A stretch of DNA of 64,000 nucleotides from a virus (lineage: Duplodnaviria; Heunggongvirae; Uroviricota; Caudoviricetes): IMG/VR virus record IMGVR_UViG_3300034107_000364. One strand, written 5' to 3'. This document shows, piece by piece, positions 2,148-30,604 of the stretch (position 1 is the stretch's first letter; each line of letters starts with the position of its first letter). The notes under the pieces were generated by a model. The model ran no database searches. It saw nothing but the letters and a program-made list of their open reading frames with translations, and had not been told where the DNA came from. Both the position numbers and the translations under genes were made by a program.

Positions 2148-2255
2148 GAAGCTTTAAAAAGCTGATCCTAAACCCTATCGAAAGATAGGTAAAATAGAGA
2201 GAACCAGTAATCTGCGGGTAAACCATAAGATTAGAATACGTCATACTCTATTTAT

Positions 2256-2328: not shown

Positions 2329-2343
2329 CATTTAATAAAAATA

Positions 2344-4235: not shown

Positions 4236-4270
4236 AACCAAGCCCATTAAAAAGCTTGGTTTTTTTTTGT
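4236..4270 (+). terminator. rho-independent terminator
   Basis: ACCAAGC-ccattaaaa-GCTTGGT hairpin + T9. Confidence 0.6.
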
Positions 4271-4285
4271 TTAAAATTTTAAAAC

Positions 4286-4356
4286 GTTTGGTTGGCCGAT
4301 CGGTTAGGCGCAGGATTGCAAACTCTGTAAGGTTGGTTCGATTCCAACACTAAACT
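4286..4356 (+). tRNA. tRNA-Cys(GCA)
   Basis: acceptor GTTTGGT/ACTAAAC, anticodon loop TTGCAAA, T-arm GTTGG-TTCGATT-CCAAC. Confidence 0.65.
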
Positions 4357-4394
4357 CAGAACAAAGAGTTCTTTGACATCTTGGTGAAAACGAT

Positions 4395-4467
4395 GGAGCA
4401 GTGGCAGATGAGGTCATTGCGCTGGACTGAAAATCCAGAGGAGTTGGATCGATACCAACCTGCTCCA
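4395..4467 (+). tRNA. tRNA-Phe(GAA)
   Basis: acceptor GGAGCAG/CTGCTCC, anticodon stem CTGGA/TCCAG with loop CTGAAAA. Confidence 0.8.
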
Positions 4468-4473
4468 CAATAT

Positions 4474-4544
4474 TGTCCTTTGGTCTAATGGCAGGACACG
4501 TGGTTTTGATCCACGCGGTGGAGGTTCGAATCCTTCAGGGACAA
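4474..4544 (+). tRNA. tRNA-Gln(TTG)
   Basis: U1-A72 acceptor TGTCCTT/AGGGACA (as in bacterial tRNA-Gln), anticodon stem CGTGG/CCACG with loop TTTTGAT, T-loop TTCGAAT. Confidence 0.75.
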
Positions 4545-4549
4545 CAATA

Positions 4550-4621
4550 CGGGATATAGTCTTGGGGTGAGACGCTTGCTTTGGGAGCAAGAGGCGGCAG
4601 GTTCGACACCTGCTATCCCGA
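4550..4621 (+). tRNA. tRNA-Pro(TGG)
   Basis: C1-G72 acceptor CGGGATA/TATCCCG, anticodon stem CTTGC/GCAAG with loop TTTGGGA. Confidence 0.8.
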
Positions 4622-4627
4622 CAAAAA

Positions 4628-4708
4628 TGTTCGTAACTTTTGAAAAATAATTACGAAAACGTTTTTTAGATTCAAAAACTTTGTGTATATTTACATATAA
4701 TTAATAAC
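4628..4708 (+). promoter_or_regulatory. terminator/promoter cassette, copy 4, inside tRNA array
   Basis: ATGTTCGTAACTTTTGAAAAATAATTACGAAAACGTTTTTTAGATTCAAAAACTTTGTGTATATTTACATATAATTAATAAC; ~35 nt upstream of tRNA-Gly, implying it drives tRNA transcription. Confidence 0.55.
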
Positions 4709-4742
4709 GAAAGTTCTTTGACATGTTGGAAATAACAAATAA

Positions 4743-4814
4743 GCAGATGTCGTATAATGGTCATTACTCCAGACTTCCAATCTGGAGATGAGAGTTCGAT
4801 TCTCTCCATCTGCT
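4743..4814 (+). tRNA. tRNA-Gly(TCC)
   Basis: acceptor GCAGATG/CATCTGC, anticodon stem CCAGA/TCTGG with loop CTTCCAA, T-arm GAGAG-TTCGATT-CTCTC. Confidence 0.85.
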
Positions 4815-5290
4815 CGAGAGAGACTGTTATTAATTCATAGGGCGTATAGAGTCGCTACATAGAATTAGACCTTAATTTTGAGACGTTTATGATTAGGTTC
4901 GCTACCTAATCAAAGATGCGATCCGAAACCTTAGTAATAAGGCAGCTCAAATTAAAAAGTGTTGGCTTCAGACTCCCAGTAGGGAAGTACACTTAAATAA
5001 AACAACAACGGGGAAAGTGTCGACTCGAGAAACGGCAAGTACCAACGACGGGAAGCGGTATCAATCAAACACCTCTACGTGGTGATACTAGAAATTGGTT
5101 ATGAACCTTGCGCAAGGAAAGCAACCAAAACCAAGTTTGAAAATGCATAGGTAACCGAAAGAATGTGGTTCGAGTCCACACCCGTAATAGCCAAAGGGTT
5201 GAAGCATTGAGGATGATGCATAGGTTATAACAGAGCTGCAGCTCTAGGATAGGTCTGGTTAAAGTAGGCAGTGCCAATACAAAAGGTTCG
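4815..5290 (+). other. tRNA-debris region: orphan T-arm/acceptor-like hairpins without cognate 5' halves
   Basis: GATTAGG-TTCGCTA-CCTAATC; TGTGG-TTCGAGT-CCACA followed by CCCGTAA with no pairing 5' acceptor; 59-nt mini tRNA-like GGATAGG...AAAGG-TTCGAAT-CCTTT-CTATCC. Confidence 0.4.
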
Positions 5291-5400
5291 AATCCTTTCT
5301 ATCCACAATTTAATAATTACCCCAGTATGATTGGTAAGCGTCAGAAAGTAACATCTGAGTGGCAGTGTAATTATTAAGAGGTAAGGAAAAGACTAAAAAT

Positions 5401-5497
5401 GATTATGAGGCCATTGGTTGGCGGCACCTCACAAAGGTTGAGTTGAAATACACTCTTTATTGTAAAGCTGAAATTGGTTCGAATCCAATCATAATTA
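5401..5497 (+). tRNA. atypical tRNA-like (type II, 97 nt), anticodon unresolved
   Basis: acceptor GATTATG/CATAATT, clean T-arm ATTGG-TTCGAAT-CCAAT, but ~29-nt variable region and poor anticodon stem; possible pseudo-tRNA. Confidence 0.3.
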
Positions 5498-5625
5498 CAA
5501 ATTCTAAGAGTAATTAACTTAGAACTGTCAGGTTCGAAACTGACGATTGATATTGGTGTAATGGAGCACGGAGGCCGTAATTGGAGCTCAGGTTTAAGGT
5601 TCGAATCCTTTTATATCAGCAATAT

Positions 5626-5699
5626 TCCTCGGTAGCTCAGTTGGTTAGAGCACCTGACTGTTAATCAGGGGGTCGTAAGTTCGAGTCTTACCCGGGGAG
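5626..5699 (+). tRNA. tRNA-Asn(GTT)
   Basis: acceptor TCCTCGG/CCGGGGA, D-arm TAGCTCAGTTGGTTAGAGC, anticodon stem CCTGA/TCAGG with loop CTGTTAA. Confidence 0.8.
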
Positions 5700-5850
5700 C
5701 AAACAAGGAAACAACCCCTGAGTTGATGTGGCCACATCCGGACTCAAGAGAAGTAAAGTTACCAGATGGGTGCGTAACGCCTTGGGTTATTATGACTTAA
5801 CAATGATACGAGCCTCCCAAAGTTCGCAAAATAACATAATAACCAAATTT

Positions 5851-5931
5851 GGGAGTGTTGAGCAACGGTTGCTTAGCGGACTGTAAATCCGTGGCCTTAC
5901 GGCGTTGGGGGTTCGAATCCCTCCACTCCCA
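5851..5931 (+). tRNA. tRNA-Tyr(GTA)
   Basis: acceptor GGGAGTG/CACTCCC, anticodon stem GCGGA/TCCGT with loop CTGTAAA, long variable arm, T-arm GGGGG-TTCGAAT-CCCTC. Confidence 0.8.
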
Positions 5932-5940
5932 CTATAATAT

Positions 5941-6011
5941 ACATATATGGTGCAATGGTAGCATGACGGTCTCCAAAACCGTTGATGGGAGTTCGAATCT
6001 CTCTATGTGTG
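5941..6011 (+). tRNA. tRNA-Trp(CCA)
   Basis: acceptor ACATATA/TATGTGT, anticodon stem ACGGT/ACCGT with loop CTCCAAA, T-arm GGGAG-TTCGAAT-CTCTC. Confidence 0.75.
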
Positions 6012-6205
6012 CAAATAATAAGTTGATATGCTGTGAACATTAATGTAGGCATACATTGATTAGGTGGGTTCGAATCCTGTTCAATAATTCCTATGTGGTG
6101 GAGCCAAGTAACAGATAACATATCATAGCCGGTATGGGTTGTGCACCTCGTCCGAGAAACCCTAATAGTTCCTAATAGTTCGGTATGGAACAACTTATTA
6201 TTAAT

Positions 6206-6279
6206 GGACTTGTAGCTCAGTTGGTTAGAGCACCGCACTCATAATGCGTAGGTCGTTGGTTCGAACCCATCCTGGTCCA
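6206..6279 (+). tRNA. tRNA with CAT anticodon (Met or Ile2), CCA encoded downstream (6280-6282)
   Basis: D-arm TAGCTCAGTTGGTTAGAGC, anticodon stem CCGCA/TGCGT with loop CTCATAA, T-loop TTCGAAC, 3' CTGGTCCACCA. Confidence 0.7.
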
Positions 6280-6283
6280 CCAT

Positions 6284-6355
6284 AGTCGATTAGTTTAACG
6301 GATAGAACACCCGACTACGGATCGGGAGATAAGGGTTCGAATCCTTTATTGACTA
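6284..6355 (+). tRNA. tRNA-Arg(ACG)
   Basis: acceptor AGTCGAT/ATTGACT, anticodon stem CCCGA/TCGGG with loop CTACGGA, T-arm AAGGG-TTCGAAT-CCTTT. Confidence 0.8.
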
Positions 6356-6365
6356 CAAATATATT

Positions 6366-6438
6366 GCGGGTTAAAGTTCTGGTGAACTTATCGGTCTCAT
6401 AAGCCGAATGAAGGGTAGTTCGATTCTGCCACCCGCTA
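6366..6438 (+). tRNA. tRNA with CAT anticodon (second copy; Met/fMet/Ile2 not distinguishable)
   Basis: anticodon stem TCGGT/GCCGA with loop CTCATAA, T-arm GGTAG-TTCGATT-CTGCC; acceptor has G-U at 1-72 and one mismatch. Confidence 0.55.
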
Positions 6439-6443
6439 CTAAA

Positions 6444-6517
6444 TTGCGAAATGGTAGAGTTGGTTTCTTACGGTGCTCTCATAAGGCATAGACACAGGTT
6501 CGAGTCCTGTTTTCGCA
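6444..6517 (+). tRNA. tRNA with CAT anticodon (third copy, weaker)
   Basis: acceptor TGCGAAA/TTTCGCA, anticodon loop CTCATAA flanked by stem with 2 G-U pairs, T-arm ACAGG-TTCGAGT-CCTGT. Confidence 0.5.
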
Positions 6518-6570
6518 ACAAAAGTTTTTAGGGTGGTTCTGGTTCTTCAAAAACGCTATCACCTCCACCA

Positions 6571-6644
6571 GACTTCGTAGCTCAGTTGGTTAGAGCATCG
6601 CACTTTTAATGCGAGGGTCGATGGTTCGAGTCCATCCGGGGTCA
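6571..6644 (+). tRNA. tRNA-Lys(TTT)
   Basis: acceptor GACTTCG/CGGGGTC, anticodon stem TCGCA/TGCGA with loop CTTTTAA. Confidence 0.85.
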
Positions 6645-6744
6645 CTTGCTTCACTCATAATACTGCGATCTCTCAGTTAAAAGCTGTCGTAGAGTAAAGT
6701 TATAGTCCAATATGGCTATAGGTTATGACAAAGTGAAGCTCCAT

Positions 6745-6819
6745 GCTTTCTTAGCTCAGTTGGTTCAGAGCGCCTCGTTTACACCGAGGAGGTCACAGGT
6801 TCGAACCCTGTAGAAAGCA
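6745..6819 (+). tRNA. tRNA-Val(TAC)
   Basis: acceptor GCTTTCT/AGAAAGC, anticodon stem CCTCG/CGAGG with loop TTTACAC, T-arm ACAGG-TTCGAAC-CCTGT. Confidence 0.85.
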
Positions 6820-6888
6820 CAGTCGGCGCCCAAAGGACGCAGGACCTGGCCAGAGATTTATTCTTGCAAACTCGATGCCGAAAGTCGA

Positions 6889-6915
6889 GCTGCCGATCTA
6901 CGGGATCGGCTTTAT
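6889..6915 (+). terminator. GC-rich hairpin + T-run (terminator-like) inside tRNA array
   Basis: GCCGATC-tacgg-GATCGGC followed by TTTAT; lies in an unusual GC-rich 90-nt island. Confidence 0.4.
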
Positions 6916-6997
6916 GCCCGAGTGGTGGAATTGGTAGACACACTAGATTTAGGATCTAGCGCCGAGAGGTTTGAGGGTTCGAGTCCCTCCTTGGGTA
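6916..6997 (+). tRNA. tRNA-Leu(TAG)
   Basis: acceptor GCCCGAG/CTTGGGT, D-arm GTGGAATTGGTAGACAC, anticodon stem CTAGA/TCTAG with loop TTTAGGA, long variable arm. Confidence 0.8.
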
Positions 6998-7000
6998 CTA

Positions 7001-7058
7001 TGTTCATTATAAATGAATGTTCATTGCCAATGAACACATGAAAATAATGAACACACAT
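7001..7058. repeat. cluster of 4 alternating TGTTCAT / ATGAACA heptamers (inverted repeats)
   Basis: tgttcattataaatgaatgttcattgccaatgaacacatgaaaataatgaacaca directly upstream of tRNA-His. Confidence 0.5.
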
Positions 7059-7132
7059 GGTGGTTATAGTGTTAGCGGTTAGCACGTCAGTTTGTGGTAC
7101 TGATAGCATGGGTTCGAATCCCATTAATCACC
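7059..7132 (+). tRNA. tRNA-His(GTG) with encoded G-1
   Basis: G-1 then GTGGTTA/TAATCAC, discriminator C, anticodon stem TCAGT/ACTGA with loop TTGTGGT. Confidence 0.85.
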
Positions 7133-7139
7133 CAAAATT

Positions 7140-7224
7140 GGAAGATTGTCAGAGCGGTCTATAGTGCAACTTTGCTAAAGTTGTGGATGTCACAGTCCCG
7201 AAGGTTCGAATCCTTCATCTTCCG
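7140..7224 (+). tRNA. tRNA-Ser(GCT)
   Basis: acceptor GGAAGAT/ATCTTCC, anticodon stem CAACT/AGTTG with loop TTGCTAA, long variable arm, T-arm GAAGG-TTCGAAT-CCTTC. Confidence 0.85.
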
Positions 7225-7329
7225 CAAAAAATGAAACTTTTTTAATTGATCAAGTATAATTATCAAATTAACAAAGTTCTTTAAAATATTAAAGGTTTCT
7301 TACAGCAATTAAAAAGCAATCAGAACCGG

Positions 7330-7420
7330 TACATTGTAGGTTCGAGTCCTACCTCTCCAACAACACAACTATGAAAACTTGGAGAGTGGTGAAATTGGTA
7401 AACACACTGGTAAGCAAAAA
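7330..7420 (+). other. tRNA halves in permuted order: 3'-half-like (T-arm + acceptor CTCTCCA) ~25 nt upstream of complementary 5'-half-like (TGGAGAG + Leu-type D-arm)
   Basis: GTAGG-TTCGAGT-CCTAC-CTCTCCA at 7336-7359 has no 5' partner upstream; TGGAGAG-TG-GTGAAATTGGTAAACAC at 7380-7406 has no 3' partner downstream; the two pair perfectly with each other; flanked by repeated ACAGCAA(A)T motifs. Confidence 0.35.
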
Positions 7421-7629
7421 CAGAAACCTGTAAATTCTTGGGATACCTACAGCAAATACACATCTTCAATCTATAAACTGAAAACCAACGTGTATCCCGT
7501 ATTTTTAAAATATAAAGGATGCTTCCAGCAAATTTAAAAACTTTTATTGGAAAAAGCAAATCAGCATCCTGTTATTTTATTCATTTAACCAGCCGGCTTT
7601 ATTAGATACATATATAAATATTACAATAA

Positions 7630-8322
7630 ATGAAAACACATATAATTTATCTAAGAGGCAATGAATTCTCAGAGACTATGGTAAAAGATACCATAAAGTC
7701 TTTAAATAAATTCGGTATCGAGTTTGAATTATTTGATGGAGTTGTAGGCAGAAAAGGCATTGAAGTTTTAAAATCTTATAATGCAAAACCTTCAGCGTAT
7801 GTTAATATGGTAGATTGGACCGATGGTACTATAGGTTGTTTAGCAAGTCATTATTTATTATGGGACGAGTGTTCTAAACAAGATCAGCCTTTTTTAATTC
7901 TTGAACAAGATGCAGTTTTAGTTAGAGATCCTAGAGAAATATTACACTTAATAGAAAATGCATGTCATTTAGATGCATATTTACCATTTAATAATTCAGG
8001 TTTTATTACAGAACATGAACACTTTGAAGCGTATAATGATGCTATTAAACTTTATACTAGCGGAGTTAAAAAACACCCTATTAGTAGATTTTATGGAGAT
8101 AAATCTATAACTGGAAGTACTTTTAGAGGTGCATATGGATATATAATAACTCCTAAAGGTGCCCAAGAAATCTTAGATTTTATAAATAAAAAAGGTATAT
8201 TTCCAGCAGATGCATGTTTATGTGAAAATGCCACAGATATTCAAAGAGCAAATAGTACATATGTTAGATTAAATCCATTTTTCGAAACATTGGACTTACA
8301 AAGAAAATTTTCATCAAGATAA
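7630..8322 (+). CDS. glycosyltransferase family 25 (LOS/LPS glycosyltransferase, Lic2B/LgtB-like)
   Basis: HIIYLRGNEFSE...GTIGCLASHYLLW...PFLILEQDAVL matches the GT25 signature. Confidence 0.6.
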   Translation: MKTHIIYLRGNEFSETMVKDTIKSLNKFGIEFELFDGVVGRKGIEVLKSYNAKPSAYVNMVDWTDGTIGCLASHYLLWDECSKQDQPFLILEQDAVLVRDPREILHLIENACHLDAYLPFNNSGFITEHEHFEAYNDAIKLYTSGVKKHPISRFYGDKSITGSTFRGAYGYIITPKGAQEILDFINKKGIFPADACLCENATDIQRANSTYVRLNPFFETLDLQRKFSSR

Positions 8323-8326
8323 CCAC

Positions 8327-8400
8327 AGTCATTTAGCTCAGTTGGTTAGAGCGCCTCGCTGATACCGAGGAGGTCGTAAGTTCGAGTCTTACATTGACTA
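8327..8400 (+). tRNA. tRNA-Ile(GAT)
   Basis: D-arm TAGCTCAGTTGGTTAGAGC, anticodon stem CCTCG/CGAGG with loop CTGATAC, T-arm GTAAG-TTCGAGT-CTTAC; starts 5 nt after GT25 stop. Confidence 0.8.
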
Positions 8401-8403
8401 CAT

Positions 8404-8430
8404 AAAAAAAGCCGCAATTGCGGCTTTTTT
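8404..8430 (+). terminator. rho-independent terminator
   Basis: AAGCCGCAATTGCGGCTT hairpin + T6. Confidence 0.7.
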
Positions 8431-8483
8431 AGTTTTATATATTTAAAAGAATATATAGATTATACTCAAAAATTAAAAACAAT

Positions 8484-9515
8484 ATGAAGATTAAAAGTTA
8501 CGAAGGATTTGTTGCTAATAAAAGATTAGTAGAATCTAGAAGACAAGTAATAATTAATGTGCTTGAACAATTCGAAGAAATTAAACCAATTATGAATGAA
8601 GCTCTACTTATAGTTGAGTTTGGTATATTTGATGAGGGTTTTGATAATCTTAACGAAGAAAACCTAATTAGCAAAATGAAGGCTAAATTTGATGCTGCTG
8701 TAGAAGTTGCAAAAGAAAAGGGTAAACAAGCATTGACAAAATCACAAGAAGTTATCATTAAATTAGGTGGTAAAATTGCTTCTATTATTAAACTTATTGT
8801 TGAGAAATTAAAAGAATGGGTTGACGCTGCATGGACAGCTGCAAAATCAGCATATGCATCAGGAGCACAAGCTAAGGTTAAAGAAATTACAGCTGCAATC
8901 GAAAAGAAATCAGAAGAAAGTAAAAATCTTTTATTAAAAGAAGTTAAACAAGGTAAACAAGTTGTATCTGCAACAGTTGGATGGATTACTAGTGGATTTG
9001 TTAAAGATACTGCAACCGCAGCTCAACAAGCCGCAAGTGAAGATGTTAAAGAAGCCTTTGAAATTGCAATATTAGATTCTATTAATGAAGCAGTTATCAA
9101 TGGAGATATTGATTTTACTGATCTATTAAAAGAAAGTGATGCAAATGGACCAAGTATTCCATTCGTATCAGCAATTGCACATAAAATGCACCATATTCCA
9201 CCATTTAATTTATTAGATAAAGTTAAACAAGCTGCTGAAAAAGTTGCTAAAGGAACTCTAGGTAAATTATCATATTATGCTACTGAATTAGCAGGAGCAC
9301 CAGGACCATTTGAATTTATTGCACTTGCAGGTATTATTGGAATTATTGCTGAAGTTCAAGTTAAAGGAGTTGCAAAGCACGCTCTATTACATGCAGTACC
9401 AGGTTTAGGTACGGTAGCATCTATTATATCAAACGTTGCAATGTTATTAGCTGTAATTGGTATCATTGAGGCTGTTATGGGTAAAGAAAAGGATGATGAG
9501 GAAACTGCACACTAA
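8484..9515 (+). CDS. hypothetical protein (343 aa) with CTS-like N-terminus and hydrophobic C-terminal segments
   Basis: MKIKSYEGFVANKRLVE resembles the MKHxKLFEEFxNE leader family; C-terminus GIIGIIAEV...AMLLAVIGIIEAV predicted membrane-active. Confidence 0.55.
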   Translation: MKIKSYEGFVANKRLVESRRQVIINVLEQFEEIKPIMNEALLIVEFGIFDEGFDNLNEENLISKMKAKFDAAVEVAKEKGKQALTKSQEVIIKLGGKIASIIKLIVEKLKEWVDAAWTAAKSAYASGAQAKVKEITAAIEKKSEESKNLLLKEVKQGKQVVSATVGWITSGFVKDTATAAQQAASEDVKEAFEIAILDSINEAVINGDIDFTDLLKESDANGPSIPFVSAIAHKMHHIPPFNLLDKVKQAAEKVAKGTLGKLSYYATELAGAPGPFEFIALAGIIGIIAEVQVKGVAKHALLHAVPGLGTVASIISNVAMLLAVIGIIEAVMGKEKDDEETAH

Positions 9516-9537
9516 TTAAAATAAATTTAAGGTACAT

Positions 9538-9610
9538 AGCGGGTTGGTAGAAGTGGTATCTCGCGAGCCTCATAAGCTCGAGGTCGGGGGTTCGAGTCCC
9601 TCACCCGCAA
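9538..9610 (+). tRNA. tRNA-Met(CAT), atypical D-arm
   Basis: anticodon stem CGAGC/GCTCG with loop CTCATAA, T-arm GGGGG-TTCGAGT-CCCTC, acceptor GCGGGT/ACCCGC with unpaired A1xA72. Confidence 0.6.
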
Positions 9611-9694
9611 CTAATTTCATAACTTCTTAAAATGAATCACATTCATGATATATAATAAAGTACTTATGTACTGATAAAAATATTATAACATGTA

Positions 9695-12844: not shown

Positions 12845-12927
12845 TTGTTCGTAACTTTTTTAAAAATAATTAGCCAAACATTTTTTTGTTTGGCTTTTTT
12901 TGTGTATATTTACTCTATAATTAAAAA
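12845..12927 (+). promoter_or_regulatory. terminator/promoter cassette, copy 5 (hairpin variant)
   Basis: TTGTTCGTAACTTTTTTAAAAATAATT-AGCCAAACAtttttttGTTTGGCT-TTTTTTGTGTATATTTACTCTATAATTAAAAAC. Confidence 0.6.
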
Positions 12928-13137: not shown

Positions 13138-13293
13138 ATGAAAGTAATTTACATGGAGCCTACAATTCAGATGTTGGCATTTTTAAACAAAGAAAATCCT
13201 AATTATGTTAAAACACTTATTGAAAGTGGTACAGTTAAAGAATTAGAAGGTGGTCAAAAATATTTAGTAATCGAAGATAAAACAGAAGAATAA
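13138..13293 (+). CDS. hypothetical small protein (51 aa)
   Basis: MKVIYMEPTIQMLAF...; stop overlaps ligase start (TAATG). Confidence 0.35.
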   Translation: MKVIYMEPTIQMLAFLNKENPNYVKTLIESGTVKELEGGQKYLVIEDKTEE

Positions 13294-14585
13294 TGCAAGA
13301 TTTAAAACAAATACAAGAGTTCGTAGATGCTCAAAATTCTACAAATAGTAATACTGACAAATTGAACGTATTAAAGGCATATGCTGACAATCTGGCAATT
13401 CGCAAAGTATTGGAGTATACATATAATACTTTTAAACAATATTATGTTACTTCAGAAACTTGTAAAAAACGCAGCGACTTGGTTGCTCCAGAAAACATGT
13501 ATAGCAATCTTTTTAGTTTGCTCGACGACCTTAATGATCGTAATATTACTGGCCACTCCGCTATTCAAGCAGTCAATGCGTTTGTTGGCGCATATCCTGA
13601 ATCCGAGGAGCTAATCTTTAATGTCATTGATCGTAATCTTAAAACGAGAGCTACAGCATCCATGATCAATACTGCAATCCCAGGTCTTATTCCTACATTT
13701 GACGTTGCATTAGCAAAAGCTTATGACGAAAAAACTCAAAAGAAAGTTAAATGGTCAGATGGTTGGTTTGTTAGTCGTAAATTAGATGGATGTCGATGTG
13801 TATGCATTATAGATGGTCAAGGTGAACCTAGATTTTATTCTCGTGTAGGAAATGAATTCTTAACACTTGATAATCTTAAGCCTTCTATTAGACAACTTGG
13901 TCTTATTAATACTGTATTAGATGGTGAGATTTGTATTGTAGATGCAAATGGAAACGAAGATTTCACAAGTATTATGAAAGAGATCAAACGTAAAGATTAC
14001 ACAATCAAACAACCACATTATTATATTTTTGACCACTTAACAATCAAAGAGTTTGAATCTAAAGTTTCAACTACTAAATTTGGTCAACGTATCGCAAACA
14101 TTGAAAGCATTGTTCCAGAAGGTTTAACAGGTGTTTCAGTCTTAGATCAATTCATGTGTGCAGACGATATGTTTGCTAGTTTATTAGAGCATTCTAAAAA
14201 CGAAGGTTGGGAAGGACTTATGTTACGTAAGAATACAACTTACAAAGGTAAAAGATCTGACGAAGTACTTAAAGTAAAATCATTCCATGATGCAGAGTAT
14301 ATTGTGGTAGATGTTGAGCATGATATACAGCGAGTTATTGTTGATGGTTCAGAAGTTTCTGAATTGATGTTAAAAAATATTATCATTGAACATAAAGGAT
14401 ACCGAGTTCAAGTTGGTAGTGGTTTTAATCACGAACAACGACGTCATTATTTTAACAATCCTAGCGATATTATTGGTAAACAAGTTACGGTTCAATATTT
14501 TGAAGAAACACATAATCAAAATGGTGGAACTAGTTTAAGATTTCCAACTATAAAAGCTATTTATGAAACTGAAAGAGATTTTTAA
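13293..14585 (+). CDS. ATP-dependent DNA ligase (nucleotidyltransferase superfamily)
   Basis: motif I KLDGCR (KxDGxR), motif IV-like EGLMLRK, motif V LKVK; N-terminal helical domain. Confidence 0.7.
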   Translation: MQDLKQIQEFVDAQNSTNSNTDKLNVLKAYADNLAIRKVLEYTYNTFKQYYVTSETCKKRSDLVAPENMYSNLFSLLDDLNDRNITGHSAIQAVNAFVGAYPESEELIFNVIDRNLKTRATASMINTAIPGLIPTFDVALAKAYDEKTQKKVKWSDGWFVSRKLDGCRCVCIIDGQGEPRFYSRVGNEFLTLDNLKPSIRQLGLINTVLDGEICIVDANGNEDFTSIMKEIKRKDYTIKQPHYYIFDHLTIKEFESKVSTTKFGQRIANIESIVPEGLTGVSVLDQFMCADDMFASLLEHSKNEGWEGLMLRKNTTYKGKRSDEVLKVKSFHDAEYIVVDVEHDIQRVIVDGSEVSELMLKNIIIEHKGYRVQVGSGFNHEQRRHYFNNPSDIIGKQVTVQYFEETHNQNGGTSLRFPTIKAIYETERDF

Positions 14586-17225: not shown

Positions 17226-17275
17226 TATTTTTTTATATCAAATATTAGTTGTATATTAGCCTTATAATTAAAAAC
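17226..17275 (+). promoter_or_regulatory. promoter element (cassette 3' half only), copy 7
   Basis: GTATATTAGCCTTATAATTAAAAAC 8 nt upstream of ATG 17283. Confidence 0.5.
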
Positions 17276-19951: not shown

Positions 19952-19996
19952 TTGTTTTATGTCAAAACTTTTGTGTATATTTACATATAATTAAAA
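19952..19996 (+). promoter_or_regulatory. promoter cassette (TTATGTCAA variant), copy 8
   Basis: TTTTATGTCAAAACTTTTGTGTATATTTACATATAATTAAAAAG upstream of PRPP-synthetase-like gene. Confidence 0.55.
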
Positions 19997-20007: not shown

Positions 20008-20883
20008 ATGGTACAGAAATTAAACTTAGTAGACCTAGAAAATTCAGACATTAAATACAAAATCTCTCGATTTCCTGATGGTCAGCAATCAATCACATTA
20101 GATATGGTTGATGCAGATTTACCAAACAAAATCACAGTAAGTATTACAAGTCGATTTAATTCATTTAAGGATTTAGAAATCATTATTGCTGCTAATCAAG
20201 CACTTCGTGAATTTTCATATGTCGAGAATGTTAAGTTAAATGTACCTTATTTTTTAGGAGCTCGTTCAGATCGTAAATTCGAGGCTGGTACCAGTAACTA
20301 CCTTAAAACAGTTATTTGTCCAATCATCAATGCACAAAACTTCTCAAGAGTGACAGTATTAGATCCTCACTCAGATGTTTTAGAAGCTTGTTTGAATAAC
20401 TATCACAAACACAATAACCATCGTTTGGTTAAAGATGCATTAACAAAGATTGATAATAAAGATGGTGCACAAAGCAGAATCTGTTTAGTAAGTCCAGATG
20501 CTGGCGCTTATAAAAAGATCTTTGATGTTGCAAAAGAATTTAACATTGATAATATTGTTACAGCATCTAAAGTGCGAGATATTAAAACTGGAAAGATTCT
20601 TAGAACTGAGATTCCCACTTTAGATCAACATGCAGATTTAAAGTACGTTATCATTGATGACATTTGTGATGGTGGTAGAACTTTCATTGAATTGGCTAAA
20701 GCTATTAAAGGAAGCCGACCAAGTGCTAAAGTTTATTTAGTAGTAACACATGGTATTTTTAGTGCTGGATTTAAAGAATTATCACAATATTTTGAAGGCA
20801 TCTATACAACAAATAGCTACCGAGAAGTTGCAGATAATGAGTATGGTGAGAACACTAAAACAATTGCATTTAACATATTCTAA
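20008..20883 (+). CDS. ribose-phosphate pyrophosphokinase homolog (PRPP synthetase-like; candidate ADP-ribose pyrophosphate synthetase of NAD+ reconstitution pathway)
   Basis: RFPDGQ..., VPYFLGARSDRK (Prs catalytic flexible loop region), VSPDAGAYKK and IIDDICDGGRTF PRTase type I motif. Confidence 0.7.
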   Translation: MVQKLNLVDLENSDIKYKISRFPDGQQSITLDMVDADLPNKITVSITSRFNSFKDLEIIIAANQALREFSYVENVKLNVPYFLGARSDRKFEAGTSNYLKTVICPIINAQNFSRVTVLDPHSDVLEACLNNYHKHNNHRLVKDALTKIDNKDGAQSRICLVSPDAGAYKKIFDVAKEFNIDNIVTASKVRDIKTGKILRTEIPTLDQHADLKYVIIDDICDGGRTFIELAKAIKGSRPSAKVYLVVTHGIFSAGFKELSQYFEGIYTTNSYREVADNEYGENTKTIAFNIF

Positions 20884-21098
20884 TGTATACAGTTGATTCA
20901 TTATTCACACAACACGGATACGTTATAGAAATAGAAGTGGACCGTACAAGTGCTCCAAAGTTTGCATTCGACATATACAAATATGAACACTTTGGTAACT
21001 ATGAAAAAATTGAAGTAAGAGATTGGTATTTATACCGAACATGGCAAGAAGCATTTGATGCAGCCATTGAAGAACTAACACAATTAAATTTAATATGA
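20883..21098 (+). CDS. hypothetical protein (71 aa)
   Basis: ORF. Confidence 0.45.
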   Translation: MYTVDSLFTQHGYVIEIEVDRTSAPKFAFDIYKYEHFGNYEKIEVRDWYLYRTWQEAFDAAIEELTQLNLI

Positions 21099-21228
21099 GA
21101 AAAAAAGAAGTAGAAGTAGCAAAAGAAGTACAAGAAGTTATTGTACTGGTTCATGATCCAATCTTGGGTTCAAGATATGAATTAAGAGAAGTTGAAGTAG
21201 AAGAATCTGAAAACGAGGAAGCAGAGTA

Positions 21229-21726
21229 ATGGAATCTATTTACAATAGAGAATATCGAATGTATGGATTGGTGCCTTATAATTTAAGCCCAATCCAACAA
21301 GGTATCCAATTTGGACATGCTGTTGTAGAATATGGGCTTGATTTCTTTAATACTCCAGAATACCAAGAATGGGCGAAAATAGACAAAACATTTATTATTT
21401 TAAATGGTGGAACTACTAATGACAGTAGCATGAGATTAGGAACTCTTCAGCAAAACTATTTTGAATTAACAGATCGAGGTATTAAAGTTGGAGAATTTCA
21501 TGAGCCAGATTTGGGAGATCAAATGACTGCTGTGGTTTTCTTAGTTGATGACAGAGTTTTTGACAAAACCCACTGGCCTGATTATGTTGGTCCATATTAT
21601 ATAGATGGTACAACACCAATCGAAATGGATTATTATGAATGGAAGATGAAATTTGCTGAAAGTGAAAAGGAAGCAGATCAGATCATTTTCTTAAGAGAAT
21701 TTTTAAAACGATTTAGACTAGCATAA
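21229..21726 (+). CDS. possible PTH2-family peptidyl-tRNA hydrolase-like protein
   Basis: IQQGIQFGHAVVEYG and EPDLGDQMTAVVFLVD align loosely with PTH2 GKIAAQCSHAA and DAGRTQIAPGSQTVLGIGP; low confidence. Confidence 0.35.
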   Translation: MESIYNREYRMYGLVPYNLSPIQQGIQFGHAVVEYGLDFFNTPEYQEWAKIDKTFIILNGGTTNDSSMRLGTLQQNYFELTDRGIKVGEFHEPDLGDQMTAVVFLVDDRVFDKTHWPDYVGPYYIDGTTPIEMDYYEWKMKFAESEKEADQIIFLREFLKRFRLA

Positions 21727-22247
21727 TGGGACAATTAAATGATTTTATAAAATCAGAGATAGAGGTTGATACAAATTATCAAGAAATTAATGGTGATCTA
21801 ATCAAATTAGCCAACGAAGGTACATTTGATGTTATTACACATGGTTGTAATTGCATGAGCACAATGGGTGCTGGAATAGCACCTCAAATGGCAAAAGCAT
21901 TTGGAGTTGATCAATATCCTCTTGAATCTTTTACTCGTAAAGGTGATATTAACAAATTAGGACAAATTGAATGGCTAGTTGAAAGAGATGGTGCAATACC
22001 ATATGTTGTTAATTCATATACTCAATATAATTATGGTGCAAATCATAAAGATGGAACTGCTAAACCAATTGATTACGAAGCACTAACAATGTGTATGCGC
22101 AAGATAAATCACACGTTCAAAGGCAAACATATTGGATTGCCAAAGATTGGTGCAGGATTAGCAGGCGGAGACTGGAACAGAATTAAAACCATTATCCAAA
22201 CAGAACTAAAAGATATGAAAGTGTCAGTGGTAATTTACAAACTATAA
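21726..22247 (+). CDS. macro domain protein, OARD1/TARG1-Poa1p subfamily
   Basis: FDVITHGCNCMSTMGAGIAPQMAKAFG matches LAHCISxDCRMGAGIA signature; GLPKIGAGLAGGDW second Gly-rich loop. Confidence 0.55.
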   Translation: MGQLNDFIKSEIEVDTNYQEINGDLIKLANEGTFDVITHGCNCMSTMGAGIAPQMAKAFGVDQYPLESFTRKGDINKLGQIEWLVERDGAIPYVVNSYTQYNYGANHKDGTAKPIDYEALTMCMRKINHTFKGKHIGLPKIGAGLAGGDWNRIKTIIQTELKDMKVSVVIYKL

Positions 22248-22248
22248 A

Positions 22249-22320
22249 TGTTCGTAACTTTTTAATAATAAATTTTACCAGATCAATTATTATTAGTATA
22301 TTTACTTTATAATTAAAAAC
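22249..22320 (+). promoter_or_regulatory. terminator/promoter cassette, copy 9
   Basis: ATGTTCGTAACTTTTTAATAATAAATTTTACCAGATCAATTATTATTAGTATATTTACTTTATAATTAAAAAC. Confidence 0.6.
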
Positions 22321-22329
22321 AATCAATAT

Positions 22330-23814
22330 ATGAACCCATTATTTTTAACAGACGGTTACAAAACAGGACATCACCAACAATATCCAAAAGGAACTACGTT
22401 GGTTTATTCTAACTTTACTCCTCGTAGTAACAAGTACGCACCACAAGGTTGCGATCAATTAGTATCATTTGGACAACAAATGGTAGTTAAACAAATTCAC
22501 GAAGCTTTTGAAAAAGATTTCTTTAGTCGTCCTAAAGATGAAGTTTGTGGAGAAATGAAAAGAGAATTGTCAATGTACTTAAATACTGACTATGATGTTA
22601 GTCACTTTGAAGCTTTACATGATTTAGGTTATTTGCCTATTATTGTTAAAACAATCGAAGAAGGTAGTTTAGTACCAATGAGAGTTCCAGTATTGACAAT
22701 CTACAATACACATCCAGATTTTTATTGGATTACAAACTACCTAGAAACAATTATTTCTAACTTGTTATGGAAACCAATGACTTCTGCAACTATTGCACAT
22801 GCATATCGTAAAGTGTTGACTGGATGGCAAGAAAAAACCGATGCTGAAAGATCTTGGTTTATTGATTGGCAAGGACATGATTTCTCAATGAGAGGTCTAG
22901 ATTCTATTGATGCTACTATTAGTTCAGGTCTTGGTCACTTAACAAGTTTCTCAGGTTCAGACAGTTTACCAGCAATCTTCGGAGCTCGTAAGTTTTATGG
23001 AGAAACTGGATTTGTTGCTGGATCTGTGAATGCAACTGAGCACTCAGTTATGTGTGCTGGTAGTAAAGAAGATGAGGTTGGAACATTTAGAAACCTAATG
23101 GAAACATATCCAACAGGAATTCTTTCAATCGTATCAGATACTTGGGACTTATGGAAAGTTTGTACTGAACATATCGTTACATTGAAAGAAGAGATTTTAG
23201 CTCGTGATGGTAAGGTAGTTATTAGACCTGACTCTGGTGATCCAGTTGAAATTATTTGTGGTAAAAAATGGGATGACGAACAAAATCCATATGATGAAAA
23301 TGTAGATGCTATTGAGAAAGGTGTTGTTGAATTATTATGGGATGTATTCGGTGGAGAAATCAATGAACAAGGTTACAAAGTTCTTGACTCTCACATTGGA
23401 GCAATCTACGGAGATTCAATCACAATCGAAAGAGCAAATGAAATCTGTAAGCGTTTAGAGGCAAAAGGATTTGCAAGTACAAATATCGTTTTAGGTGTAG
23501 GTTCATTCACATATCAATTTAATACAAGAGATACATTTGGTTTTGCAATGAAAGCCACTTATGTTGAAGTAAATGGTGAAGGTCGTGAAATCTTTAAAGA
23601 TCCAATCACTGACGATGGTATTAAGAAATCTGCAAAAGGTTTATTGCATGTTGCTAAAATTTTTAATAAAAGTATTAACGATGGTTATATGCTAGTCGAT
23701 CAATGCTCATGGGAAGATGAGAGTAAAGGAATGTTAAAAACTATCTATAAAGATGGAGAGTTTTTAAACCAAACTACCCTTACTGAAATCAGAGAACGTT
23801 TAAGAAATTCATAA
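22330..23814 (+). CDS. nicotinamide phosphoribosyltransferase family (NAMPT/NadV-like; candidate Namat)
   Basis: N-terminal NPLFLTDGYKTGHHQQYP, full-length (494 aa) NAPRTase-fold similarity to NAMPT. Confidence 0.75.
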   Translation: MNPLFLTDGYKTGHHQQYPKGTTLVYSNFTPRSNKYAPQGCDQLVSFGQQMVVKQIHEAFEKDFFSRPKDEVCGEMKRELSMYLNTDYDVSHFEALHDLGYLPIIVKTIEEGSLVPMRVPVLTIYNTHPDFYWITNYLETIISNLLWKPMTSATIAHAYRKVLTGWQEKTDAERSWFIDWQGHDFSMRGLDSIDATISSGLGHLTSFSGSDSLPAIFGARKFYGETGFVAGSVNATEHSVMCAGSKEDEVGTFRNLMETYPTGILSIVSDTWDLWKVCTEHIVTLKEEILARDGKVVIRPDSGDPVEIICGKKWDDEQNPYDENVDAIEKGVVELLWDVFGGEINEQGYKVLDSHIGAIYGDSITIERANEICKRLEAKGFASTNIVLGVGSFTYQFNTRDTFGFAMKATYVEVNGEGREIFKDPITDDGIKKSAKGLLHVAKIFNKSINDGYMLVDQCSWEDESKGMLKTIYKDGEFLNQTTLTEIRERLRNS

Positions 23815-24086
23815 TGAATAGAAAAAACGCAACATTATTAATATTAATCTTTGCAGCGCTTGTAGCCTTTGTGGTTACAGGCTGCGAAGGTAATGTACAT
23901 GTTTCAACTAAATCAAATCCACATAAAATGGAACTTGATAGTAATTCACAATACTCTGATCAAAATTATAGAGTCTACACTCTTGAAGGTTGTGAATATA
24001 TTGTAGTCGGAATGGGTAATAACCAATGGGGATCCCATAAAGGAAATTGTAAAAATCCAATACACAAACAAAATGAAAGTAATTAA
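23814..24086 (+). CDS. small lipoprotein
   Basis: signal peptide LLILIFAALVAFVVTGC lipobox. Confidence 0.5.
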   Translation: MNRKNATLLILIFAALVAFVVTGCEGNVHVSTKSNPHKMELDSNSQYSDQNYRVYTLEGCEYIVVGMGNNQWGSHKGNCKNPIHKQNESN

Positions 24087-24543
24087 ACCACCACAAAAAG
24101 AATCATGGAAACATGATAATGCTATATTCTTAGCAGGTTCTATAGAAATGGGCAAAGCCGAAGATTGGCAAGCTACAATTCCAGCAATATTTAAAGATCG
24201 TAAAGATTTAATATTCTTAAATCCTAGACGTAATGATTGGGATTCTAGTTGGGAACAAACAGAATCTAGTCCACAATTTAGCGAACAAGTTAATTGGGAA
24301 TTAGATATGCTAGATAAATGTAACCTTATTTTCATGTACTTTTCACCAGAAACAAAGAGTCCAATTAGTTTATTAGAACTTGGATTGTATGCTACTTCAT
24401 GTAAAATGATAGTTTGTTGTCCAGATGGATTTTATCGTAAAGGTAATGTAGATATAGTTTGCAGCAGATATAATATCCCGCTTTACAACACAATGGAAGC
24501 TGCGATTGGTAGATTAAGAACAGAATTAAAAGACGTAGAATAA
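24073..24543 (+). CDS. nucleoside 2-deoxyribosyltransferase-like protein
   Basis: IFLAGSIEMG... and ELGLYATSCKMIV match Nuc_deoxyrib_tr fold motifs. Confidence 0.5.
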   Translation: MKVIKPPQKESWKHDNAIFLAGSIEMGKAEDWQATIPAIFKDRKDLIFLNPRRNDWDSSWEQTESSPQFSEQVNWELDMLDKCNLIFMYFSPETKSPISLLELGLYATSCKMIVCCPDGFYRKGNVDIVCSRYNIPLYNTMEAAIGRLRTELKDVE

Positions 24544-24544
24544 T

Positions 24545-24823
24545 ATGAAAAATTCAATAGGACTTATAAATTACGAAGGAGATTGTCTTAAATTAGTTAA
24601 AGACAATGATGCACTTCATGTTAAAGATCAATATGGTCAAACTGTAATGCAGAATATTACAGTAGAAAGGGTATATGAATTCATATCGGGTACTATAAGT
24701 ATCACTGATAGTGAAGGTAAAGGTTGGTGGTTTACATTAGAACACGAGAACGCAAAACCATCACTTTTTAAAATACATGAATTCCTTAAAGATATTAACA
24801 TCAAAATCTGCAAATGTTCGTAA
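24545..24823 (+). CDS. hypothetical protein (92 aa)
   Basis: ORF; stop codon lies inside TTGTTCGTAA of cassette 10. Confidence 0.45.
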   Translation: MKNSIGLINYEGDCLKLVKDNDALHVKDQYGQTVMQNITVERVYEFISGTISITDSEGKGWWFTLEHENAKPSLFKIHEFLKDINIKICKCS

Positions 24824-24895
24824 CTTTTTAAAAAATAATCAGCCAAACATTTTTTTGTTTGGCTTTTTTTTAGTATATTAGCCTTATAATTAAAA
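24815..24895 (+). promoter_or_regulatory. terminator/promoter cassette, copy 10 (hairpin variant)
   Basis: TGTTCGTAACTTTTTAAAAAATAATC-AGCCAAACAtttttttGTTTGGCT-TTTTTTTAGTATATTAGCCTTATAATTAAAAC. Confidence 0.6.
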
Positions 24896-25399: not shown

Positions 25400-26107
25400 A
25401 TGAGAATAACATTAATTTCAGATACTCACACAAAGCATGATGAGTTATCTTACGATCCTAAAGATCTCCCAGGTGGAGACTTATTAATCCACGCAGGAGA
25501 CATTATGAATTCTGGTAGAAATCCAGTGGATATTAACCAATTTTGTAAATGGTTTGAAGGATTAGAGCAATATAGCAATAAAGTTTTTATTGCAGGAAAC
25601 CACGATAGAATCTTTGAAACTGACCCAGAAATGGCAAGTGAGATTTATACTTCTTATAAGAACATTGATTATCTTCAAGATAATCGATTAGATCTATGGG
25701 ATGAAAATGACCAACAAATTGTTATTTATGGTACGCCTTGGCAACCTGAATTTTATAGTTGGGCATTTAATTTACCAAGATGCGGTCCAGGTTTGATGTC
25801 AAAATGGGAAGCAATTCCAAAAGACACAGATATTCTTATCACACATGGACCACCACAAGATCATTTAGATATGAGTGGACCTCCATATAATGAGCCTCAT
25901 TTAGGATGTGAATTGCTTAGAGAAAAAGTAGACGAGCAACCACCTAAGATTCATGTATTTGGACACATTCATGGTGGATATGGTTACAAATTCCATAATG
26001 GTACTCACTTCTTTAACGCATCAATCTTAAACGAAAGATATGAATATGTAAACAAGCCAGTAACGTTTGATTGGGATCCTGAAACTAATGAAATAACTTT
26101 TATATAA
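25400..26107 (+). CDS. calcineurin-like metallophosphoesterase
   Basis: ISDTHT, GDLLIHAGDI, IAGNHD, ILITHGPP, VFGHIHGG motifs. Confidence 0.7.
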   Translation: MRITLISDTHTKHDELSYDPKDLPGGDLLIHAGDIMNSGRNPVDINQFCKWFEGLEQYSNKVFIAGNHDRIFETDPEMASEIYTSYKNIDYLQDNRLDLWDENDQQIVIYGTPWQPEFYSWAFNLPRCGPGLMSKWEAIPKDTDILITHGPPQDHLDMSGPPYNEPHLGCELLREKVDEQPPKIHVFGHIHGGYGYKFHNGTHFFNASILNERYEYVNKPVTFDWDPETNEITFI

Positions 26108-30400: not shown

Positions 30401-30474
30401 GGGGGTGTAGCTCAGTTGGCTAGAGCATCTGCCTTGCACGCAGAGGGTCGCAGGTTCGATTCCTGTCACCTCCA
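30401..30474 (+). tRNA. tRNA-Ala(TGC)
   Basis: acceptor GGGGGTG/CACCTCC with G3-U70 identity pair, D-arm TAGCTCAGTTGGCTAGAGC, anticodon stem TCTGC/GCAGA with loop CTTGCAC. Confidence 0.85.
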
Positions 30475-30481
30475 CTAAAGA

Positions 30482-30521: not shown

Positions 30522-30604
30522 TTGTTCGTAACTTTTTTAAAAATAGTTAAGCCCAGATTTTTTAGTTTGGGCTTTTTTTAGTATATTAGCCTTATAATTA
30601 AAAC
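30522..30604 (+). promoter_or_regulatory. terminator/promoter cassette, copy 11 (hairpin variant)
   Basis: TTGTTCGTAACTTTTTTAAAAATAGTT-AAGCCCAgattttttagTTTGGGCTT-TTTTTAGTATATTAGCCTTATAATTAAAAC. Confidence 0.6.

Follow-up and report, generated by a model that had tools for sequence, protein, structure and literature searches.

A probable NARP1-AP gene cluster for NAD+ reconstitution in an uncultured jumbo phage, with a PF15891 gene as a candidate partner

Introduction

The NAD+ reconstitution pathway NARP1 couples two enzymes: Adps, which starts from ADP-ribose (ADPR) plus ATP and makes ADPR pyrophosphate (ADPR-PP), and Namat, which combines ADPR-PP with nicotinamide to yield NAD+ (10.1101/2024.02.11.579819). 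Namat homologues that are not paired with Adps form a separate Nampt clade, which works with an NMNAT in the pathway named NARP2 (10.1101/2024.02.11.579819). The RES-domain defence aRES splits NAD+ into nicotinamide and ADPR-1''-phosphate, a product that Adps cannot use; approximately 15% of NARP1 phages encode in the operon a Poa1p-like macro-domain phosphatase, Adpp, which restores ADPR, and the extended pathway is termed NARP1-AP (10.64898/2026.01.28.702374). Here, we describe a gene cluster located between 19.9 and 24.9 kb of a 64-kb stretch of DNA (the window) from the ~261-kb genome of an uncultured phage (IMG/VR record IMGVR_UViG_3300034107_000364). Its genes indicate that the cluster is in all likelihood a NARP1-AP counter-defence pathway rather than a Prs/NadV salvage pair, and it includes a gene of the Pfam family PF15891 that we consider a candidate partner of the pathway.

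Comparison with described NAD+ reconstitution loci

The NARP1-AP of Vibrio phage Gary (10.64898/2026.01.28.702374) comprises the same three enzyme families as the window in the same order, with the macro-domain gene between Adps and Namat. The window proteins are 35% identical to its Adps (compared via the protein of Vibrio phage Pontus) and 38% identical to its Adpp, and the Namat clamp motif is common to both loci. The predicted outcome is also the same, namely NAD+ made from ADPR or ADPR-1''-phosphate plus nicotinamide. The window differs from the Gary locus by three additional open reading frames (ORFs) of 71, 44 and 165 codons between Adps and Adpp, by a promoter-like cassette of its own in front of Namat and by the presence of the PF15891 gene in the Namat unit.

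The NARP1 loci of Bacillus phage SPbetaL1, Escherichia phage Bas63 and phage FADO (10.1101/2024.02.11.579819) share the Adps and Namat core with the window, in which the Adps lysine and the Namat catalytic and clamp residues are retained. These loci are compact two-gene operons devoid of a macro-domain gene, a PTH2-like gene and a PF15891 gene, whereas the window has all three. Mycobacteriophage DyoEdafos combines NARP1 with RyDEP, an accessory enzyme encoded in the locus that turns a defence-made ADPR derivative into ADPR (10.64898/2026.05.28.727677), and this principle serves as a model for our interpretation of the PF15891 gene. RyDEP is a RyR-domain O-glycosidase acting on 2'/3' cyclic ADPR (cADPR), whereas PF15891 proteins adopt a different fold and their known relatives cleave N-glycosidic bonds; a Pfam scan detected no RyR domain in the window. 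NARP2 of Vibrio phage KVP40, composed of NadV/Nampt and a NadM-type NMNAT-Nudix protein, resembles the window in using a NAMPT-fold enzyme to restore NAD+. It requires an NMNAT and lacks Adps, whereas the window has Adps and a Namat-type NAMPT-like protein, and a crude scan showed no NMNAT signature in it.

Candidate Adps and Namat enzymes

The family and structure comparisons drew on Pfam, NCBIfam, PHROG and PDB. The product of the gene at 20008 matches the Pfam family Pribosyltran (29.4 bits) and PHROG 619, annotated 'ribose-phosphate pyrophosphokinase' (233 bits), and reaches the cutoff of none of the 11 NCBIfam Prs models, the best being TIGR01251 with 83.7 bits against a cutoff of 113. 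It is 41% identical to the NARP1 protein of Bas60, 35% to the Pontus/Gary-type Adps (the first 54 Adps residues of Pontus are those of Gary), 29% to SPbetaL1 Adps and 22% to Escherichia coli Prs. The catalytic lysine of Adps (K162 in SPbetaL1 and K185 in ICP1) corresponds to K188, and a DPHSDV motif, the PP-loop DDICDGGRTF and a short C-terminus are common to this protein and Adps proteins. The acceptor-site and catalytic residues have been listed for the ICP1 Adps structure (PMC13586617). Matched by motif position rather than by alignment, R86, F91, H121, D164 and D217-D218-I219-C220-D221 of the window protein correspond to R87, F92, H121, D161 and D212-D216 of ICP1. The scores and motifs thus support the assignment of the 20008 protein as an Adps and not a housekeeping Prs.

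The product of the gene at 22330 matches NAPRTase (134.8 bits), NAMPT_N (32.5 bits) and NCBIfam PRK09198 (550 bits). With the crystal structures of SPbetaL1 Namat (9W5X/9W5W) its score is 544 bits, compared with 227 bits to Xanthomonas Nampt and ~195 bits to human and rodent NAMPT, and it is 51-52% identical to the experimentally validated Namat proteins of SPbetaL1 and FADO. Namat enzymes possess a selectivity clamp that is absent from Nampt: a helix of the form GS-X-phi-X-phi-X-phi-TRD with aromatic X residues at positions 3 and 7, and a loop whose third position is occupied by Arg, Lys or Tyr; when it is Lys or Tyr, the residue that follows stacks on the adenine (PMC12774641). In the window protein, the clamp helix reads GSFTYQFNTRD (residues 391-401), with F393 and F397 corresponding to F392 and Y396 of SPbetaL1, and in the clamp loop R40 of SPbetaL1 is replaced by K35, followed by Y36. 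The Nampt-type version of the helix, with Gly/Lys in place of the aromatic residues, was not found in this protein. The mapped residues of the catalytic core are all conserved (F189, D215, H245 and R306 of SPbetaL1 correspond to F185, D211, H238 and R299). Taken together, these features support the assignment of the 22330 protein as a Namat and not a Nampt/NadV.

Among 28 de-replicated clusters of related Namat genes, 27 have an Adps gene nearby. NARP1 pairing is defined as Adps and Namat lying at most 10 genes apart; in the window, four ORFs occupy the 1,446 bp between the Adps stop and the Namat start. This agrees with an earlier note on this DNA, made from the sequence without database searches, which had placed a Prs-like and a NAMPT-like gene 1.4 kb apart and proposed that the pair reconstitutes NAD+. 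The comparison that it had suggested, made here by scores, identities and motifs, separates the 20008 protein from housekeeping Prs and the 22330 protein from NadV, and does not bear out the classical salvage pathway that it had named as refuting.

A macro-domain protein of the Adpp family

The protein encoded at 21726 matches PHROG 335, annotated 'phosphatase' (161.6 bits), and is 38% identical to the biochemically tested Adpp of Vibrio phage Gary and 39% identical to the phiAbaA1 homologue, which we took from Table S1 of 10.64898/2026.01.28.702374. Thirteen columns of the alignment are invariant, among them H39, N42 and, in a G..LAGGDW stretch, the positions G142, G147 and W150; this residue check covered the family-invariant positions. 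The PDB matches include BT1257 (4e-12) and yeast Poa1p (6lfu, 1.5e-4; 6lfq, 1e-3), in line with the OARD1/TARG1-Poa1p subfamily named in the earlier note, which had regarded the macro protein as a possible supplier or cleaner of ADPR-type substrates lying outside the described pathway. The first of these suggestions fits the dephosphorylation of ADPR-1''-phosphate by Adpp homologues (10.64898/2026.01.28.702374); the second is superseded, as the macro gene is already explained by the Adpp of NARP1-AP, which converts ADPR-1''-phosphate to ADPR.

Predicted pathway and alternative interpretations

We infer the enzyme activities in this phage from homology and gene context, and each step of the proposed mechanism is borrowed from characterised homologues. 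Host SIR2, TIR and SEFIR domains would cleave NAD+ into ADPR and nicotinamide, while aRES would generate ADPR-1''-phosphate and nicotinamide. Adpp would strip the 1''-phosphate to give ADPR, Adps would move pyrophosphate from ATP onto ADPR to give ADPR-PP and Namat would swap the pyrophosphate for nicotinamide, thereby regenerating NAD+.

Several observations weigh against this interpretation. The identity to tested proteins is moderate (29-52%), and the assignment of Adps and Namat to their clades rests on scores, identities and motifs. The 21726 protein scores 19.7 bits against the Macro family PF01661, just below the cutoff of 22, and weakly matches the NCBIfam DarG model (35 bits, where the cutoff is 250). 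An NMNAT may also be encoded elsewhere, since the 64 kb of the window are part of a ~261-kb genome; within the window, a crude six-frame scan for the HxGH/ISSTxxR motifs revealed no signature of an adenylyltransferase. The Nudix gene at 43845-44333 (PF00293, 48.6 bits), which the earlier note had identified correctly, lies 20 kb from the NARP1 cluster and encodes a standalone protein of 162 residues with only a Nudix domain and no adenylyltransferase or NMNAT domain.

The DarG match could mean that the macro protein merely happens to lie between the NARP1 genes and acts on macromolecules, stripping them of ADP-ribose as DarG or TARG1 do and so counteracting host ADP-ribosyltransferase toxins. 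Macro domains are versatile, and the PDB matches also include OARD1/TARG1 (~2e-3) and the bacterial macrodomain 5e3b (1.9e-7). We consider such a role very unlikely, since the protein is nearer to the Adpp family (38-39% identity, with the invariant residues), to Poa1p and to BT1257 than to DarG, and since a macro gene placed between Adps and Namat is what defines NARP1-AP, a macro homologue being found beside NARP1 in 11 of the 28 Namat clusters. Classical salvage of the NARP2 or KVP40 kind, with a Prs-like enzyme making phosphoribosyl pyrophosphate (PRPP), a NAMPT-like enzyme making nicotinamide mononucleotide (NMN) and a phage or host NMNAT adenylylating it, would suit the Pfam and NCBIfam labels of the two proteins (Prs-like and nicotinate/nicotinamide phosphoribosyltransferase), the ability of Namat enzymes to still make NMN from PRPP in vitro and an NMNAT scan that covered 64 kb of the ~261-kb genome, but is extremely improbable in view of the Namat-only clamp motif and a score to Namat 2.4-2.8 times that to Nampt, of a 20008 protein that fails every Prs cutoff and bears Adps-specific motifs, of the lack of an adenylyltransferase signature in the scanned window, whose sole Nudix protein is standalone, and of the separate clade formed in the reference study by Namat homologues without Adps.

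The NARP1-AP interpretation would make this cluster a distant, uncultured jumbo-phage version of the pathway, 29-52% identical to tested proteins. It would also indicate that the genes of NARP1-AP can be divided between two units, each with its own promoter, and have other genes inserted among them, which matters for the automated detection of anti-defence loci.

A PF15891 gene as a candidate NARP1 partner

The core of the cluster thus reads as a divergent member of the known NARP1-AP, and its genes and those of related loci make the PF15891 gene at 24073-24543 a credible addition to the pathway. The encoded protein matches PF15891 above the gathering score, has a nucleoside 2-deoxyribosyltransferase (NDT)-like fold and yields a confident predicted structure, with a predicted local distance difference test (pLDDT) score of 86. 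Its residue E102, within the stretch SPISLLELG, is invariant in 41 homologues and aligns, weakly, with the GYELG stretch of human DNPH1 (E-value 0.073; the DNPH1 sequence used is approximate), which would put it at the place of the nucleophile in these enzymes. NDT and DNPH1 catalyse N-ribosidic cleavage or base exchange via a glycosyl-enzyme intermediate.

Gene neighbourhoods link PF15891 to NARP1 in phages. Across 80 phage loci centred on PF15891, Adps and/or Namat lies within 8 kb in 66, the genes being arranged in six or more ways (Adps-NDT-Namat, Adps-Macro-NDT-Namat, Namat-NDT, NDT-Namat-Adps, Adps-NDT-Macro...Namat and Adps-Namat-NDT), and the linkage is kept down to ~46-55% Namat identity. 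After de-replication, PF15891 accompanies Namat in 16 of 28 clusters and the macro gene in 11, so that PF15891, which the earlier note did not mention, is commoner beside NARP1 in this phage group than the published macro phosphatase and is there the accessory gene with the steadiest link to the pathway. The other genes flanking the cluster in the window (up134, lip90, d92 and d107) each occur in at most 2 of the 28 clusters and therefore provide an internal control for inherited gene order.

The association extends to bacteria. Sampling one genome per species (80 loci, mostly Bacteroidota), we found PF15891 together with Adps and/or Namat in 21 loci, 12 of which have the order Adps-NDT-Namat, usually with 10-40 nucleotides (nt) from the NDT to the Namat gene; the Namat genes of bacterial PF15891 loci carry the Namat clamp motif. 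Recurrent bacterial neighbours of PF15891 are NADAR, Tpt1/KptA, an NrtR-type regulator, Macro, ADP-ribosylglycohydrolase (ARH) and microbial PARG. These bacterial islands suggest that chromosomes encode a system for recycling ADPR and NAD+ that is based on NARP1 enzymes. Within the set of bacterial loci (L251-L330, for example L269, L290, L310 and L325), the PF15891 NAD/ADP-ribose islands also occur with DUF4291 and a 2-oxoglutarate-Fe(II) oxygenase.

The link does not hold for the whole family, an idea that we rejected: homologues that are 40-47% identical lie away from NARP1 in four cultured jumbo phages (CcrColossus, Xanthomonas X1, Alishewanella Slickus01 and Erythrobacter L02), so that the link is one of a subfamily. 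Part of the phage PF15891 signal may stem from common descent and not from function. Both points count against a role in the pathway. An alternative view is that the protein is unrelated to NAD+ and serves the nucleotide pool or DNA modification, for example as a DNPH1-like or MilB-like hydrolase of deoxynucleoside or nucleoside monophosphates, and that its place beside Namat reflects inherited gene order only. In keeping with this view, the characterised proteins nearest to it in structure use (deoxy)nucleosides and nucleotides as substrates, and 34 long members of the family show no recurrent NAD-related fusion, with single cases of fusion to Zeta_toxin/AAA_33, RelA_SpoT and DUF5661. We nevertheless regard it as rather doubtful. 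The four control genes fall to at most 2 of 28 clusters with divergence, against 16 of 28 for PF15891, whose adjacency survives six or more different gene orders and a fall in Namat identity to ~46-55%. The bacterial pairings (21 of 80 species, the gene usually lying 10-40 nt upstream of Namat), the NAD+- and ADP-ribose-related bacterial neighbours and one phage fusion to an ADP-ribosyltransferase also argue against it.

That fusion is found in Tunturiibacter phage Tunturi_5, whose gp225 (L249, 3953-7741) is a 1,262-residue protein in which PF15891 forms the N-terminal domain and is joined to an ADP-ribosyltransferase domain of the ART-PolyVal type. The gene adjoins the portal gene, and the protein, annotated only as a MutT/NUDIX hydrolase, is polyvalent and probably injected; as a single case, the fusion is anecdotal.

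Weighing both sides, we tentatively propose that the PF15891 protein works as a partner of NARP1, with an N-riboside derived from NAD as its substrate. It could likewise, as a somewhat speculative extension, represent a further, undescribed accessory arm of NARP1 beside Adpp and RyDEP: an N-ribosyl hydrolase or transferase with a glutamate nucleophile, partnering chiefly Namat. Two roles can be envisaged. The enzyme might free nicotinamide from NMN or nicotinamide riboside, including NMN arising from the PRPP side reaction of Namat or from defences that produce AMP and NMN. Alternatively, it might cleave or base-exchange N-linked ADPR conjugates (His-ADPR, N-linked cADPR isomers or nicotinic acid adenine dinucleotide) and so feed the pathway. 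We favour nicotinamide supply or ADPR release because of the chemistry of the fold, the tendency of NARP1 loci to collect input-converting enzymes and the position of Namat as the tightest neighbour. A 2022 survey from the Aravind group made the general prediction that viral enzymes of the TIR-DrHyd-SLOG class act on N-glycosidic bonds of ADPR derivatives (PMC9503650). We found no searchable paper tying PF15891 or the deoxyribosyltransferase family to NARP1, and the YtoQ literature gives no function.

Should the PF15891 protein prove to be a NARP1 partner, phages would have to handle another NAD+-derived molecule or a nicotinamide-supply step, and an orphan family of wide distribution, with 2,995 clusters at 50% identity, would gain its first function. 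The partnership would also offer a handle on why bacteria keep NARP1 genes, as the Bacteroidota pairing with NrtR, NADAR, KptA, Macro, ARH and PARG would then outline a cellular ADP-ribose/NAD+ recycling route on NARP1 enzymes.

A calcineurin-like phosphoesterase gene (Metallophos, 235 residues, 25400-26107) lies 0.9 kb downstream of PF15891 and occurs in 13 of 76 loci, all of them near relatives. We considered it as a further partner because a Metallophos gene neighbours PF15891 in 10-11 of the bacterial loci, and rejected it: apart from a weak N-terminal match, the window protein is unrelated to these bacterial versions, and it is found in near relatives only.

The 165-residue protein between Adps and Adpp

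The earlier note had read the gene at 21229 as PTH2-like. A weak structural lead towards this fold exists: the AlphaFold2 model has a pLDDT of 78, the structural leads are weak and Foldseek matches several phage proteins annotated as peptidyl-tRNA hydrolase, so that a PTH2 fold is plausible but weakly indicated by the model. At the sequence level, membership of the PTH2 family and its catalytic residues were not found. The protein has no Pfam or NCBIfam match, a PDB sequence search returned nothing with either the single sequence or a 41-sequence profile, and hhalign against human PTRH2 (approximate sequence) gave a probability of 0.2%.

The general connection of this gene to the pathway, which the earlier note had entertained, is not supported after de-replication. 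NARP1 genes lie within 8 kb in 28 of 80 phage loci centred on the 165-residue family, mostly near relatives, and within 4 kb in 8 of 32 clusters once the family is de-replicated; conversely, the gene is present in 3 of the 28 Namat clusters. Elsewhere, it follows a gene for a PARP catalytic domain and lies near an RNA ligase, the RNA-repair nucleotidyltransferase RlaP and a 173-residue protein containing two HxS motifs. The homologue in Certrevirus phages is located 1-2 genes downstream of the CCA-adding enzyme. The PARP, RNA ligase, RlaP and HxS neighbours are absent from the window. Because the NARP1 link is limited to near relatives and the gene keeps RNA-gene company elsewhere, we conclude that it is most likely a lineage-specific insertion into the Adps-Adpp unit and that its product is probably RNA- or tRNA-directed.

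The protein could instead belong to the pathway as an esterase or hydrolase that makes an Adpp or Adps substrate from a ribose-linked ADPR derivative, candidates being O-acyl-ADPR and the ADPR-1'',2''-cyclic phosphate formed by ADPR-PP decay. Its gene lies inside the Adps-Adpp unit, translationally coupled to Adpp through a 1-nt overlap, takes at least three gene orders inside NARP1 clusters (in the window, in loci L118/L122 and in locus L143) and outside NARP1 often directly follows a PARP-domain gene, encoding another NAD+-using enzyme. We judge this unlikely, given a link seen in just 3 of the 28 Namat clusters and, within its own family, in 8 of 32, and given the proximity elsewhere to RNA ligase, RlaP and the CCA-adding enzyme, which together with the 25 transfer RNA (tRNA) genes of the window fits an RNA or tRNA role. 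PTH2-fold enzymes are known as carboxylic-ester hydrolases and are not known as phosphodiesterases.

Three IMG/VR phage contigs (L123, 6469-9038; L137, 3331-9487; L156, 4877-9005) contain a block formed by a homologue of the 165-residue protein, an RNA ligase (PF09414) and the 173-residue protein with two HxS motifs. A PARP gene (PF00644) lies directly upstream of the homologue in these blocks, except in L156, and RlaP (PF10127) is present in L123. The 173-residue protein has no Pfam match and is possibly a 2H phosphoesterase; the block looks like an RNA-repair or ADP-ribosylation module.

Layout and transcription signals of the cluster

Every gene between 19.9 and 24.9 kb lies on the + strand, and the genes are tightly packed (Table 1), the ORFs from Adps to Adpp overlapping successively by 1-4 nt. 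The four ORFs that the earlier note had reported and described were all found at its coordinates and on its strand. Between Adps and Namat it had counted two genes; the 71- and 44-residue ORFs are also present there.

Table 1. Features of the NARP1-AP-like cluster and its borders, in window coordinates
Feature	Position	Strand	Remark
Promoter-like cassette P1 (GTATATTTACATATAATTAAAA)	19975..19996	+	ends 12 nt 5' of Adps ATG; putative promoter
Adps homologue, PRPP-synthetase fold, 291 aa	20008..20883	+	Pribosyltran, PHROG 619
71-aa ORF	20883..21098	+	1-nt overlap with Adps stop
44-aa acidic ORF	21095..21229	+	4-nt overlap with 71-aa ORF
165-aa protein, weak PTH2-like fold	21229..21726	+	PHROG 3668 'hydrolase'
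Adpp homologue, Poa1p-like macro domain, 173 aa	21726..22247	+	start overlaps 165-aa stop by 1 nt
Promoter-like cassette P2 (GTATATTTACTTTATAATTAAAA)	22296..22318	+	ends 12 nt 5' of Namat ATG
Namat homologue, NAMPT fold, 494 aa	22330..23814	+	NAPRTase and NAMPT_N, PRK09198
90-aa lipoprotein-like ORF	23814..24086	+	signal peptide then Cys
PF15891 nucleoside-2-deoxyribosyltransferase-like protein (DrHyd-class), 156 aa	24073..24543	+	Pfam
92-aa ORF, last before terminator	24545..24823	+	no family match
Putative hairpin terminator, 9-bp stem then T-run	24841..24864	+	
Third promoter-like cassette	24873..24895	+	directly 3' of hairpin; precedes gene at 24907

A cassette of the form GTATATT-N4-7-TATAATTAAAA, first spotted by eye and then tested statistically, occurs in 10 copies in the window, exclusively on the + strand, against 0 expected from 100 shuffles (138-160, 576-598, 838-860, 12904-12926, 17251-17273, 19975-19996, 22296-22318, 24873-24895, 30581-30603 and 52487-52509). 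The copies at 19975, 22296 and 24873 each end ~12 nt short of an ATG that lacks an obvious Shine-Dalgarno sequence. As the earlier note had suggested, the Prs-like and NAMPT-like genes have promoter-like cassettes of their own. The cassette probably defines a phage-specific promoter class. A generic sigma-70 promoter scan gave 29 matches against 33.9 expected, that is, no excess.

The recurring cassette, the overlaps between genes and the hairpin lead us to infer two adjacent transcription units, the first from Adps to the macro gene and the second from Namat to the 92-residue ORF. The right-hand boundary at 23814 drawn in the earlier note is thus too short, as the second unit runs through the 90-residue ORF, PF15891 and the 92-residue ORF to the terminator.

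The smaller ORFs appear confined to close relatives. Neither the 71- nor the 44-residue ORF has a Pfam, NCBIfam or PHROG match; the former is kept in the closest relatives only, invariably with the 165-residue gene, and the latter between Adps and the 165-residue gene in near relatives. The N-terminus of the 90-residue ORF (...LVAFVVTGCEG) reads as a lipobox; present in 2 of the 28 Namat clusters, this ORF is probably unrelated to the NAD+ pathway. The 92-residue ORF is conserved in the nearest relatives only. A nucleotide search with the 5.1-kb region against 50,697 phage records returned a 38-bp match only and no close cultured phage.

Genome context

Over most of its length the window has a G+C content of 30-34%. 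The last interval (62001-64000) reaches 0.42 with a negative GC skew, and smaller rises occur at 4001-8000 (0.39-0.40, in the tRNA array) and at 40001-42000 (0.39). The tRNA genes serve most amino acids; 24 of the 25 form an array at 1760-9611 and one lies at 30401-30475.

The gene at 13293-14585 encodes an ATP-dependent DNA ligase (PF01068 and PF14743, 430 residues), and the phage's own ligase therefore consumes no NAD+. The Nudix protein encoded at 43845-44333 begins with MKHLKKYDQFINE, which resembles the T4 capsid-targeting sequence, MKTYQEFIAE, and may be packaged and injected. In Vibrio phage Pontus (L247, 1513-3472) and Escherichia phage PaulScherrer/Bas60 (L248, 1-602), genes for an RNA ligase and a phosphoesterase are found no more than a few kb away from NARP1, so that phages that are unrelated to each other have NARP1 and RNA-repair genes in one region of the genome.

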